In this document: in pieces, positions 27,155-30,193 of the stretch
Layout: each line of letters opens with the position of its first letter
How positions within the stretch are numbered: position 1 is the stretch's first letter
Assembly: GCA_035550755.1 (NCBI GenBank)
Contig: DASZON010000119.1
Location: 1-33,450 of the forward strand
Source: Actinomycetota bacterium
GTDB taxonomy: Bacteria > Actinomycetota > CALGFH01
Length of the DNA: 33,450 nt
Reading direction: 5' to 3'
The notes under the pieces: model-generated
Seen by the model: only the letters and a program-made list of their open reading frames with translations
The model's database searches: none
Told to the model about the DNA's origin: nothing
Program-made: the position numbers and the translations under genes

Positions 27155-30100
27155 ATGGTGCAAGTTGGGGTCCAGCGGCCGGCGGCGGCGCGGGTGGAGA
27201 GCGCCCCGGTGGCCGGGTCCCAGACTGTGGCCGACCAGGGCGGGCGGCGGGCTGGTGGGCCGGCGATGGGGCTCGCCCGGACCCTGACCGCGGAGCAGGT
27301 CACGGCGAGCCGGCCGGCCGACCCGGGCGTGGGGGAGGGCATCGACCTGGTGCTCGTCATCGCCGACGTGAGCCCCGACCCGGTGCCCGACCCGAAGTAC
27401 TCCGAGCGGGTCGCGCAGTATGTGGTCACGGTCCTGCAGCCGGAGCACCTCTACGTCGTCAACGGCCTGGTCGAGATCGTCGAGAACCTGAAGCAGCGCG
27501 GGCGGGAATCGGTCAAGGTCCGCCGGCTCCGGATCGTCGGGCATGGCTCGCACGACCGGCCCGGCGCACCCTTCGGCTCCACCGGGGGCAAGACGCTGAT
27601 GCGCGACCCCACCGGCCGGCGCGGTTGGATACCCCCCGCCGTCATCGAGGAGTACGCCAAAGGCCGCGAGGTCAGAGAGGTCATGAACCAGGTGCTGACC
27701 CCCGGCGCCGTGGTCGAGTTCTGGGGCTGCAGCCTGGGCAGCTACGAGACCGCCGGCAAGGCCTGGGCGAACCTGTTCGGTCGGACCTTCGTCGCGCCCA
27801 CTCACGCGTTCGAGTACGCGCACTGGGAGATCTGGGTGCGGCGGCGACGATACCGCCAGGGCCAACCGGTCGACCGGCCCAAGGAGGTGGTGCTCGACCA
27901 GCCGCCGGGCGGTCCATGGGTGTACCGCCGGGTCTTCAGGAGCTCGCAGGCGGCCGCGTGGGGTCCCATGGCGACCGAGGACCTCGACAGATCACTGCGC
28001 AAGGTGTACGAGCGCCTCCACAGTGCCGGTGAGCTGCCCGACTTCTCCGGCCAGGAGGGCGGAGTGCTGGGCGCGATGCGACGGCTCTTCGACGCCCAAG
28101 GGGGCGTCATCACGATCCTGGGACCGGAGCGGCTGCCAGCTAAGAAGGGCGAGCCAGTCAAGAAAGGCGAGCTCCCGTACCTTCCCGACGAGCCGGGGTG
28201 GGGCGAGTCATGGAAGGCCTTCCCGGCCGAGCGCACCGTCCCACCAGCCAAATCGCCACCGCCCCCCGCCACGGAAGCGAAACCGGTGCCACCACCGGCC
28301 CCGCCGCCAACGCCAGCCCATCCCGCTCCCGCACCGTCGCCGCCGCCCCCCCAGCCGGCGCCCGCCCAGCCGCCGCCGGCCCCGGTGGTCCCCCCGCCCG
28401 CCCCGCCGGTCAAGGTGGTCCCGTCGCCCGCCCCGCCGGCGGCGCCGGGGCCCGCGGCCATCACGCCACCAGCGCCCAGCAGGCCGGCGGCTCCGGCCGC
28501 GTCATCGTCGGCTCCCGCGAGGACGCTGCCTACCCGGCCCGCGCGGCCCCCGCCGGCACCGGGTCCCTCCGAGGCGATGCCGAGCCCCGCCCCGCGACCG
28601 GCGGTCAGGGCCGCGGCGGCTCCGCTGGCGGCCGAGACCGACTGGGCGCGGCAGCATCCGGAGGGCCGGGTGAGCAAGCTCGGCTCGGACGAGTGGCTGC
28701 TGTGGAACTTCGCGGTCGGGTCCGATGCGGTCAGGCCCGAGCACGCCGGGGCGCTGCGGGAGGTCTGCGCGTCGCTGTCGGCGGCGCCGGGCAAGCTGGT
28801 GATCGACGGCTACGCCTCGGCCAGCGGCTCGGTCTCCCGCAACGTGCGGCTGTCCACCGGCCGCGCCCGGTCCACGGCTGACCTGCTCACCGCGTTCGGC
28901 GCCCAGCCCACGCTGGTGACCATCCGCGGGCACGGCGAGCGGCCGCACAGCCCCGACCCGGAGGCGGCCGCCAGGGAACGCGCCGTCCGGATCTCCATCC
29001 CGGCACGGGACCGGCGGCGTCCCCTGCCCGCACCCCAGTCCCCCGGACAGCTCGAGTGGAAGGTCACCCCGCCGCCGCAGCAGCCACCGCCCGGCCCGGT
29101 GCCGGAACGCTCACCGGTCGGCGTCAGCTTCGAGTACAAGTTCTCGGTCAAGAAGCGGGTGCCCCTCGGCCCCGACTGGTACCTGATCGGGGAGATCGAG
29201 GTCGGCGCCAAGGGCGAGTTCGCCCCCCAGGCCAGCCTGGTCCTCGCCCCCTCCTACAAGCACTCCCTCGACTCGGACCGGCGGGAGAAGCTGCTGCAGG
29301 GCAAGTTCAACGACCAGCTCAAGATCGCCCTGTCCAACGCCGTGACCCTGTCGGGGTCGGTGAAGGAGGGCACCATCTCGGTCACCTTCAAGGGGCGCAA
29401 CCTGAAGGCCGAGGTAGGCGTCGGCCTCGGGGACCTGCTCGCCGACCCGGCGAAGCTGCAGGCGGCGCTGAAGAAGGACCCGGAGAAGCTGTTCACGGTC
29501 GCGTCGGTCAAGTTCACCCCCTTCGAGCTCAAGACGGAGGAGTACGACCTGGGCGACCTGGTGCCGGCCCTGCGCGGGTTCCACGTGCGCGGCACCCTCA
29601 CGCCCAAGGTCATCGTGTCCCTGTCTCCCAGCCCCCTGCTGGTCTCGCGGCTCGGCATGACCCTGGCGGCCCGGGCGGGCCCGGTCGGTGCCGGCATCGT
29701 CCTCGGGGCCGCCTGGACGGTGCTCGCCCTGTACCTCATCGACCGCGCCCACAAGCGCGGGGAGAGCTGGGCCCAGGTTGTGGACCTGCGCCGCGGCTAC
29801 GCCTATCGCGTGGCGGCGGAGGCGCTGGACTGGCAGCCGGGCCAGCCGCCGGGCGCTGGCTCGACCGTCGCCTGGGACAAGGCCAGGTCGGTCATCCTCG
29901 ACACCCTGCCCCACGGCCGGCCCGGCCAGTACACCGAGAAGGAGGAGCGGCCCATGCGCCTCGCCTACGCCAGCCTCTACGAGGGGTGGGAGGCAGCCGG
30001 CGAGGCGCTGAGGGCGCTCGACCGCGACCAGTACGACCAGCTCATGCCGCGGCTCCGGGAGCTGGGCGGCGCGACCCTGCCCAAGCTCAGCGAGACCATC

Positions 30101-30193
30101 ATGCTGCGGCTGGGGGGCTCGACCGAGAAGGAGACGCCGCTCGACCTGCGCTGGCTGCAGGGCCCTGACCGGGGCGTGGCGACGGGCCGGTGA
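27155..30193 (+). CDS. Large (1012 aa) multidomain protein: DUF4347-like N-domain, Pro/Ala spacer, degenerate OmpA/MotB-like domain, C-terminal region with TM segment
   Basis: AGAGGA Shine-Dalgarno 5 nt before the ATG. N-domain LVLVIADVS...VRRLRIVGHGSHD...VVEFWGCSLGS...GKAWANLFGRTFVAPT follows the DUF4347 pattern. OmpA-like: LLWNFAVGSDAVRPEHAGALREV...LVIDGYASASGSVSRNVRLSTGRARSTADLL...IRGHGER. Hydrophobic stretch GMTLAARAGPVGAGIVLGAAWTVLALYLI (about 29655-29743). Confidence 0.75.
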   Translation: MVQVGVQRPAAARVESAPVAGSQTVADQGGRRAGGPAMGLARTLTAEQVTASRPADPGVGEGIDLVLVIADVSPDPVPDPKYSERVAQYVVTVLQPEHLYVVNGLVEIVENLKQRGRESVKVRRLRIVGHGSHDRPGAPFGSTGGKTLMRDPTGRRGWIPPAVIEEYAKGREVREVMNQVLTPGAVVEFWGCSLGSYETAGKAWANLFGRTFVAPTHAFEYAHWEIWVRRRRYRQGQPVDRPKEVVLDQPPGGPWVYRRVFRSSQAAAWGPMATEDLDRSLRKVYERLHSAGELPDFSGQEGGVLGAMRRLFDAQGGVITILGPERLPAKKGEPVKKGELPYLPDEPGWGESWKAFPAERTVPPAKSPPPPATEAKPVPPPAPPPTPAHPAPAPSPPPPQPAPAQPPPAPVVPPPAPPVKVVPSPAPPAAPGPAAITPPAPSRPAAPAASSSAPARTLPTRPARPPPAPGPSEAMPSPAPRPAVRAAAAPLAAETDWARQHPEGRVSKLGSDEWLLWNFAVGSDAVRPEHAGALREVCASLSAAPGKLVIDGYASASGSVSRNVRLSTGRARSTADLLTAFGAQPTLVTIRGHGERPHSPDPEAAARERAVRISIPARDRRRPLPAPQSPGQLEWKVTPPPQQPPPGPVPERSPVGVSFEYKFSVKKRVPLGPDWYLIGEIEVGAKGEFAPQASLVLAPSYKHSLDSDRREKLLQGKFNDQLKIALSNAVTLSGSVKEGTISVTFKGRNLKAEVGVGLGDLLADPAKLQAALKKDPEKLFTVASVKFTPFELKTEEYDLGDLVPALRGFHVRGTLTPKVIVSLSPSPLLVSRLGMTLAARAGPVGAGIVLGAAWTVLALYLIDRAHKRGESWAQVVDLRRGYAYRVAAEALDWQPGQPPGAGSTVAWDKARSVILDTLPHGRPGQYTEKEERPMRLAYASLYEGWEAAGEALRALDRDQYDQLMPRLRELGGATLPKLSETIMLRLGGSTEKETPLDLRWLQGPDRGVATGR
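28241..28620 (+). repeat. Pro/Ala-rich low-complexity coding tract (about 125 aa spacer inside the 27155-30193 CDS)
   Basis: PPAKSPPPPATEAKPVPPPAPPPTPAHPAPAPSPPPPQPAPAQPPPAPVVPPPAPPVKVVPSPAPPAAPGPAAITPPAPSRPAAPA... read directly from the translation. Confidence 0.85.

Follow-up and report, generated by a model that had tools for sequence, protein, structure and literature searches.

Closest described systems

In AlgoCIS, an extracellular contractile injection system (eCIS), cargo proteins consist of a disordered N-terminal loading sequence, an optional DUF4157 domain, and a variable C-terminal domain. An AAA+ ATPase aids their loading, and Cgo2, a protein of 1228 amino acids (aa), is among the loaded cargo. 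An N-terminal DUF4157 domain is a marker of eCIS-associated toxins (PMC8213781; PMC11297309). In a type VI secretion system (T6SS), Tce1 is a putative cysteine protease effector that is located inside the Hcp3 tube and contains a His/Cys dyad like that of the TcdB protease domain (PMC13323088). Here, we describe a 33,450-nucleotide stretch of DNA from an Actinomycetota bacterium (assembly GCA_035550755.1, contig DASZON010000119.1, positions 1 to 33,450; hereafter the window), which carries a contractile injection system (CIS) locus, and analyse one gene in the baseplate region of this locus. The 1012-aa product of this gene comprises, from the N- to the C-terminus, a disordered region, a predicted caspase-like His/Cys domain (hereafter the N-domain), a Pro/Ala linker, an OmpA-like domain, a beta-rich region, a transmembrane (TM) segment, and a helical domain (Table 1). 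With a probability that we put at roughly 0.55, the protein is a CIS cargo, composed of a disordered loading N-terminus, a protease-like payload, and an envelope-targeting module, and not a structural baseplate protein.

The protein resembles known eCIS cargo (Cgo1 and Cgo2 of AlgoCIS and the toxins of Geller 2021 and Danov 2024) in that its gene lies in a CIS locus, its N-terminus is disordered, and it is large; furthermore, its relatives carry DUF4157 exactly where the cargo layout expects this domain. It differs from them in lacking DUF4157 itself, in being encoded between the spike and gp25 genes, and in combining a protease-like payload with OmpA-like and TM parts, and its loading is presumed. 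Tme of the Streptomyces davawensis CIS is likewise a large actinobacterial effector that is encoded within the cluster just upstream of the baseplate genes and has predicted TM helices, but it shows kinship to tape-measure proteins, consists for the most part of disordered or coiled-coil sequence, and includes DUF4157 as well as a C-terminal nuclease domain; no homology between Tme and the 1012-aa protein was seen. CisA (SCO4242) of Streptomyces coelicolor, which was compared by description only, is also bitopic and encoded beside baseplate genes; a single TM segment separates its large N-terminal part from a C-terminal domain of ~150-180 aa. Its N-terminal part is, however, unstructured, its C-terminal domain is substrate-binding-protein-like, it has no protease-like or OmpA domain, and the gene studied here is not conserved across related loci. 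That the 1012-aa protein works as an eCIS cargo is an inference, as are all the functional steps set out below.

Reading frame and operon context

The gene is preceded by the genes for a GPD hub, a Phage_base_V spike, and two proteins without a Pfam match, and is followed by the gp25 and Baseplate_J genes, which agrees with its placement inside a baseplate operon by an earlier, model-made note on this DNA (hereafter the original prediction). The GC content at third codon positions (GC3) is 0.92 in the gene, the GC content of the window being ~75%. The Shine-Dalgarno sequence GAGGA overlaps the TAG stop codon (27141-27143) of the upstream gene, and the stop codon of the gene and the GTG start codon of the gp25 gene overlap as well (GTGA). 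The TAG codon is in frame with the reading frame, four codons before the ATG, and an upstream start or a hidden signal peptide is therefore impossible. In addition, the N-terminal hydropathy maximum over the first 70 windows is 1.08, with no signal-peptide-like core. A cryptic signal peptide or an earlier start, either of which would have changed the topology envisaged in the original prediction, is thus excluded. A pseudogene or a mis-called reading frame was also considered and ruled out by the GC3 value, the Shine-Dalgarno sequence, and the conserved full-length homologues. An identical copy of the gene is present on a JGI metagenome contig.

N-terminal region and caspase-like domain

Residues 1-52 were modelled with a predicted local distance difference test score (pLDDT) of 24-35, consist of disorder-promoting residues to 69%, and vary in length among homologues (alignment A1). 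On this analysis, they may be regarded as a candidate cargo loading sequence. The sequence LARTL, preceded by GPA, occurs at residues ~40-46 both in this protein (27272-27286) and in the 1009-aa protein encoded by the upstream gene (24237-24251); the homologue P0002 begins with MGLARTLP, and the upstream gene of a related locus, L026, specifies ALARGLP. When a loading motif shared by the N-termini of the 1012- and 1009-aa proteins was sought, 459 of 2000 shuffles gave a local alignment that scored at least as high, so that the similarity is not significant, and the shared LARTL may reflect chance or a short common loading motif.

The N-domain is the best-conserved part of the protein and contains the motifs SRPxDPGxGxGxD, RRxRIVxHG, AVVEFWGC, and AW..LF. 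His130 and Cys192 are invariant in the alignments, and the His/Cys pair is also retained in distant family members. An AlphaFold2 model of the domain, built from nine sequences, has a pLDDT of 88.5 and a predicted TM-score (pTM) of 0.85, and RIVGH130-G follows the modelled strand formed by residues 122-128 and EFWGC192 follows that formed by residues 181-190. The top match in a Foldseek comparison with the PDB was Tce1 in the Hcp3-Tce1 complex (9qpe_G; E 4.1e-4, probability 1.0), and the next matches were the TPR-CHAT protease of Craspase, CED-3, metacaspases, caspases 1 and 2, MALT1, and legumain. The top match in the viral library BFVD was a caspase-domain protein. Two features of clan CD, i.e. 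a caspase/hemoglobinase-type alpha/beta fold and the location of His-Gly and Cys after core strands, are accordingly predicted by the model. At the sequence level, a profile search of the N-domain against PDB sequences yielded matches at chance level only.

Tce1, of the Tce1/Tce2 pair of the Pseudomonas aeruginosa H3-T6SS (PDB 9qpe), is therefore the best structural match of the N-domain; both have a His/Cys dyad, putative in the N-domain, on a central beta-sheet, and Tce1 is delivered by a contractile system. Unlike the protein studied here, with which it has no detectable sequence similarity (TM-scores of 0.32 and 0.51), Tce1 is 310 aa long, has no OmpA or TM module, and belongs to a T6SS rather than to an eCIS-type locus.

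The original prediction had termed this domain DUF4347-like. DUF4347 (PF14252) gave no match to the whole protein at E<=1 or to the N-domain at E<=10, and a direct assignment was rejected for want of a profile match. DUF4347 is nevertheless the commonest weak Pfam match among the relatives (2/12 and 6/57 members; best E 1.1e-5). In relatives scanned individually, the scores were 23.9 (P0050), 20.8 (P0079), and 16.1 bits (P0026) against a cut-off of 24.6 bits, and the weak matches span profile positions ~21-129, i.e. the His...Cys core. What stands of the earlier term is a remote kinship, seen through the relatives and not in the protein itself, and, going by the model, 'caspase-like His/Cys domain' is a more apt name for the N-domain than DUF4347. 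In general, DUF4347 stands at the N-terminus of large repeat proteins and is not known from CIS loci.

The N-domain family and its domain partners

In an exhaustive profile search of 1.84 billion protein representatives (E<=1e-3), the N-domain family was found to consist of 75 representatives, 34 of which were detected at E<=1e-30; such a search was needed, as a word-indexed search with the N-domain alone yielded two proteins. Most members are proteins of 400-500 aa with the domain at their C-terminal end. Among the 57 members scanned with Pfam, eCIS_core/DUF4157 precedes the N-domain in 30 and OmpA is present in 4. DUF4157 before the N-domain, together with OmpA, is found in the full-length relatives P0008-P0010 and P0022 and in the protein of a Thermoleophilia metagenome-assembled genome (MAG; L002).

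The eCIS locus of a Methanotrichaceae archaeon MAG (L003, 7828-12933) encodes three adjacent DUF4157 proteins, one of which ends in the N-domain, while another is a DUF4157-OmpA protein with a canonical GHTD motif. Such archaea have no murein, and the presence of a peptidoglycan-binding domain in an archaeal eCIS protein hints at bacterial targets. In the eCIS locus of Emticicia (Bacteroidota), the N-domain protein adjoins a DUF4157-nuclease protein. In the archaeal and the Bacteroidota locus alike, one member of an array of DUF4157 proteins bears the N-domain as its C-terminal payload. Furthermore, P0078, a distant family member and a 2044-aa SpvB/TcdB/RHS (Tc-toxin-like) protein, has an N-domain-like C-terminal tip (residues 1832-1968) that contains IITHG and FIGCNIG motifs, which suggests that the N-domain may also be used as an RHS-encapsulated toxin; the similarity is weak, with a library-wide E of 2.9e-4.

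The combination of domains in the 1012-aa protein, which had been noted as unusual for a CIS locus, proved to be not entirely without precedent: 30 eCIS-operon genes, spread over 5 phyla, are on record as carrying OmpA, e.g. Lcho_3055, which carries both DUF4157 and OmpA. No discussion of OmpA in eCIS operons was found in the literature searched.

Pro/Ala linker and OmpA-like domain

The long Pro/Ala tract of the original prediction, conjectured there to be able to span a cell wall, was found between the N-domain and the OmpA-like domain (Table 1), and its length varies among homologues. The OmpA-like domain matches PF00691 over residues 519-596 with a score of 39.5 bits (cut-off, 27.2 bits; E 7.7e-10), and the OmpA-, MotB-, Pal-, and TssL-type models of NCBIfam all match the same stretch. 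Its Foldseek matches include PA0833, MotB, YiaD, TagL, and Pal (E 4e-6 to 1e-3; model pLDDT 70-87), and it also matches the T6SS proteins TagL (5m38, 7bba) and TssL (6aeo) structurally. The OmpA assignment is therefore upheld by the Pfam score, by alignment to solved OmpA C-domains, and by the structural matches; the epithet 'degenerate', which had been attached to the domain, is not, since the profile score exceeds the cut-off.

In the alignment to solved OmpA C-domains, GYAS(552-555)ASG aligns with GYTD/GHTD, so that Ser555 takes the place of the Asp residue, and the N-x-x-L-S-x-x-R-A core keeps N563, L566, S567, R570, and A571, of which N563, R570, and A571 do not vary across alignment A1. 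Both the replacement of the Asp residue and the retention of the core had been read correctly in the original prediction. MotB, Pal, and TagL/TssL share with this domain the OmpA fold and the Asn and Arg residues of NxxLSxxRA. In contrast to MotB and TagL, the 1012-aa protein has Ser for the GHTD Asp, carries the OmpA-like domain N-terminal to the TM segment, i.e. in the reverse order, and has no signal peptide. The sequence G-x-A-S was present in all family sequences matched by a motif scan (17/17), and the change from Asp to Ser is therefore a fixed subfamily trait and not decay; the archaeal DUF4157-OmpA protein retains GHTD. The Asp residue of GHTD, Asp271 in Acinetobacter baumannii OmpA, contacts the ligand. 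An altered ligand of the GxAS OmpA domain is possible, judging from the sequence, and as the fixed change defines an OmpA subfamily, this ligand is of interest.

C-terminal half and topology

The beta-rich region (residues 640-830) is conserved in the family, always after the OmpA domain, and a database search with it returned OmpA-preceded family fragments only. The model of the C-terminal part is poor for this region and fair for the last 130 residues. Residues 640-1012 had no match in Pfam, PHROG, or the PDB, and a profile search of the C-terminal region against PDB sequences gave chance-level matches only. The OmpA domain, the beta-rich region, the TM segment, and the helical domain always travel together.

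Residues ~843-863 form the only segment with a Kyte-Doolittle value >1.6 and lie within a modelled helix (residues 845-891), 149 residues from the C-terminus. This agrees with the original description of a protein without a signal peptide whose sole hydrophobic segment lies about 150 aa from its C-terminus, and, as no upstream start is possible, the OmpA-like domain is indeed made in the cytoplasm of the producer. The 15 residues after the TM segment contain at least as many Lys and Arg residues as the 15 residues before it in 9/9 aligned members, and more in 8/9; from sequence, these flank charges weakly favour an orientation with the N-terminus outside. An N-out orientation of 840 residues lacking a signal is beyond any Sec-type route. 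As far as shown by the literature searched, the N-domain family, its caspase-like/Tce1 link, the fixed GxAS OmpA domain, and the OmpA-beta-TM-helical module have all been undescribed.

Table 1. Positions in the window of the 1012-aa protein gene, its parts, and neighbouring genes.
Feature	Position	Strand	Basis or remark
Whole gene, 1012 aa	27155..30193	+	ORF list; GC3; full-length homologues P0001-P0010
Shine-Dalgarno GAGGA, ATG 7 nt downstream	27143..27147	+	Direct sequence reading
Residues 1-52, disordered N-terminal region, candidate loading sequence	27155..27310	+	pLDDT, composition, homologue variation
Residues 53-358, predicted caspase-like alpha/beta domain (N-domain)	27311..28228	+	AlphaFold2 model, Foldseek, invariant columns
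His130	27542-27544	+	Invariant
Cys192	27728-27730	+	Invariant
Residues 361-492, disordered Pro/Ala linker, 132 aa, 42% P, 25% A	28235..28630	+	Composition, model
Residues 493-625, OmpA-like domain	28631..29029	+	Pfam, NCBIfam, PDB alignments, Foldseek
OmpA motif G552-Y-A-S555...N563..LS..R570-A571	28808-28867	+	Alignment to solved OmpA C-domains
Residues 640-830, beta-rich region	29072..29644	+	Low-confidence model; alignment A5
Residues 843-863, single transmembrane-type segment PVGAGIVLGAAWTVLALYLID	29681..29743	+	Kyte-Doolittle 2.1
Residues 864-1012, conserved helical C-terminal domain	29744..30190	+	pLDDT ~75-88; motifs in A1 and A5
Upstream 1009-aa gene	24114..27143	+	No Pfam match; conserved in related CIS loci
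Conserved ~531-aa gene, hydrophobic segment	~22522-24117	+	Context; no Pfam match
GPD hub	20598-21836	+	Context
Phage_base_V spike	21833-22501	+	Context
gp25-like gene	30190-30621	+	Pfam
Baseplate_J gene	30649-32895	+	Pfam
Sheath paralogues	14264-16165 and 16645-18687		Side observation

Distribution across CIS loci

The nearest reference CIS loci are those of Streptomyces, Kitasatospora, and Saccharothrix (Baseplate_J 61-63% identical), followed at a greater distance by that of Actinoplanes (52%). The gene for the 1012-aa protein is absent from the ten nearest reference loci that cover its slot (L005, L006, and L008-L015); L007 was excluded from this count, being too short upstream. These ten loci keep the order vgrG, unk601, unk1009, gp25, and bpJ, and the space before gp25 varies in size. 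Two loci from Streptomyces/Kitasatospora contain 4-5 kb of unrelated sequence between the unk601/unk1009 homologues and gp25 (L013, 4300-9450; L014, 5900-9490), and this gap looks like the variable slot in which the gene sits in the window.

The gene or its relatives were found in or beside CIS loci in the window, the P0002 locus, L026, L027, and L001-L004. In the closer metagenomic loci, it occupies the same slot as in the window, its position being conserved in three related loci. Between L026 and the window, bpJ, gp25, and vgrG are 75-82% identical, whereas the identities of the N-domain, the OmpA domain, and the C-terminal region are 42, 59, and 50%, respectively. Its place differs in L002 and L001. 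In the Thermoleophilia MAG, the operon opens with the homologue, which has two BTAD regulators ahead of it and is followed by the AAA+ ATPase and cap genes; the homologue of a Rhodospirillales MAG occupies the locus edge and adjoins a Cas3-family gene. An AAA+ ATPase is present in sister loci. Patchy presence, movable position, and faster divergence form the pattern of an accessory cargo and not that of a baseplate part.

Proposed role and alternatives

The original prediction had offered three ways out of the puzzle of a wall-binding domain on the cytoplasmic side, namely non-classical export, CIS-mediated delivery as cargo, and a ligand other than peptidoglycan. Delivery by the CIS would explain why such a domain is made in the cytoplasm without an export signal, and it is the solution favoured by the comparative evidence, i.e. 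the DUF4157 fusions, the patchy presence and variable position of the gene, the structural match to Tce1, and a disordered N-terminus like the loading sequences of eCIS cargo; the ligand may be altered as well.

As a cargo, the protein would act as follows. Its synthesis takes place in the cytoplasm, and it has neither a Sec nor a Tat signal. Its first ~50 residues would then serve as a loading sequence specific to this system, whose recognition the AAA+ ATPase of the locus would assist, and loading would put the chain into or onto the tube-spike assembly, by analogy with Cgo1 and Cgo2 of AlgoCIS and Tme of S. davawensis. Firing would expel the protein across a membrane. The beta-rich region, the TM helix, and the helical domain might subsequently insert in a membrane while the GxAS OmpA domain grips a wall polymer; the TM segment, being flanked by slightly more positive charge on its C-terminal side, would fit an outside N-terminus, and both of these suggestions are weak. 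Finally, the His130/Cys192 domain could cleave an envelope or cellular substrate from the flexible Pro/Ala tether, which we estimate to reach up to ~40 nm if fully extended. The cell attacked would be either foreign or, as for the cytoplasmic CIS of Streptomyces, the hypha of the producer itself, and sequence alone does not tell which.

Several observations weigh against a role as cargo. The protein itself has no DUF4157 domain, its gene lies within the baseplate block, where start and stop codons overlap or nearly abut, and not at the 3' end of the locus like most eCIS toxins, and no immunity gene is adjacent. The structural matches of the N-domain, with its putative dyad, are at the fold level only (TM-scores 0.2-0.5), and the N-terminus shows no significant similarity to that of the protein encoded next upstream. 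In addition, the TM segment might insert in the producer membrane before loading.

The position of the gene, tightly coupled between the spike and gp25 genes and conserved in three related loci, would also suit a membrane/cell-wall anchor or firing adaptor that works in the producer in the manner of TagL/TssL or CisA, with the TM segment in the cytoplasmic membrane, one side facing the baseplate, and the OmpA-like domain bound to the wall. A single TM segment and the structural match of the OmpA-like domain to T6SS peptidoglycan anchors are consistent with such a part, and CisA, a bitopic protein encoded beside baseplate genes, is required for firing. However, we consider this explanation, the main rival of the cargo hypothesis, unlikely. 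The OmpA-like domain (493-625) precedes the TM segment (843-863) in a protein without a signal peptide, and would thus lie on the cytoplasmic side in the producer, away from peptidoglycan, and not outside the membrane as in a wall anchor. The gene is not conserved with the structural genes across related loci: it is missing from the closest reference CIS loci that share the gene order, is placed differently in others, and diverges faster than the structural genes. Moreover, the N-domain serves chiefly as a payload in DUF4157 proteins and is also found in an RHS toxin, and the conserved ~531-aa gene with its hydrophobic segment is a better candidate for a core membrane component.

Two further explanations were considered. 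The protein could be a self-directed death or lysis factor, i.e. the cargo of a cytoplasmic CIS, or a partner of one, with the producer membrane as the target of firing and the protease, wall-binding, and TM modules damaging the cell's own envelope and leading to particle release or programmed cell death. Related actinobacterial CIS are described as cytoplasmic and as mediating cell death, eCIS release requires lysis (PMC8213781), and both the lack of an adjacent immunity gene and the presence of an OmpA-like domain with a TM segment would fit an action on the producer's own envelope. This explanation is a sub-case of the cargo hypothesis with no distinct architecture, though; the sequence gives no sign of where this CIS acts, and the relatives of the N-domain beside nuclease toxins in archaeal and Bacteroidota eCIS loci suggest foreign targets, so that we regard it as distinctly unlikely. 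Alternatively, the caspase-like domain could be an auto-processing module that, like the cysteine protease domains of TcdB and MARTX, cuts its own chain after delivery, for instance within the Pro/Ala linker or just behind the loading sequence, leaving the OmpA-TM part as the active one. The TcdB cysteine protease domain is reported as a top structural match of Tce1 (PMC13323088), itself the best match of the N-domain, and a long flexible linker follows the domain. Most family members, however, end with the N-domain as the sole domain after DUF4157 and have nothing downstream to release, which fits a payload better and makes auto-processing very improbable.

If the protein is a CIS cargo, the N-domain would add an uncharacterised payload family, a rare caspase-like His/Cys domain, to the eCIS toxin repertoire, with a spread over Actinomycetota, Pseudomonadota, Bacteroidota, and a methanogenic archaeon and a fold link to the recently solved T6SS cargo Tce1. 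A cargo with its own wall-binding and membrane-insertion modules would bear on the question of how an injected protein reaches the place where it acts, and of what keeps hydrophobic segments out of the producer membrane before loading. It would also provide a clean test case for whether an actinobacterial CIS acts on its own envelope or on other cells. In a more speculative form, to which we give little credence, the CIS would be an export route for an envelope-resident enzyme: the C-terminal module would insert from the far side (N-out/C-in), the GxAS OmpA domain would dock on a wall polymer, and the tether would hold the protease within or beyond the wall, giving an anchored effector in the target cell or the producer hypha and a new clan-CD-like toxin domain in bacterial and archaeal eCIS and in RHS/Tc toxins.

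Neighbouring genes

The window is chromosomal DNA of a high-GC actinobacterium, and its genes uvrC, rapZ, a CofD-family gene, whiA, gap, pgk, and tpi are followed by the CIS locus. The conserved actinobacterial block from uvrC to tpi, together with an SBP_bac_5 solute-binding gene (2810-12547), directly precedes that locus. The PGK encoded in the window is <=61% identical to that of any of 185,579 GTDB species representatives, which indicates that the host represents a deep, uncultured lineage of Actinomycetota.

The CIS locus contains a Pvc16-type cap gene, two sheath genes, two Phage_T4_gp19 tube genes, and a CIS_tube gene (afp7-like). The later genes are, in order, those for the GPD hub and the Phage_base_V spike, two genes without a Pfam match (~531 and 1009 aa), the gene for the 1012-aa protein, gp25, and Baseplate_J. 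The spike is split in two genes, the stop codon of the GPD hub gene overlapping the ATG of the Phage_base_V gene (ATGA, 21833-21836).

The 1009-aa protein had no match in Pfam, PHROG, or the PDB, nor did its C-terminal 229 residues in the PDB. Its homologues from related loci align over residues ~60-800 only, and the last ~200 residues are variable. Judging from sequence comparison, this layout is polymorphic-toxin-like, and the gene could encode a second cargo protein. The ~531-aa gene, located between the spike gene and the 1009-aa gene, specifies the strongly hydrophobic stretch IELITIVASFVLGLFLPVVVFAFQLWWMLLLKF and is kept in related Actinomycetota CIS loci and in a Pseudomonadota MAG (L016, 34% identity). 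In view of this conservation and of the hydrophobic stretch, its product may serve this lineage of CIS as a core component in the membrane.

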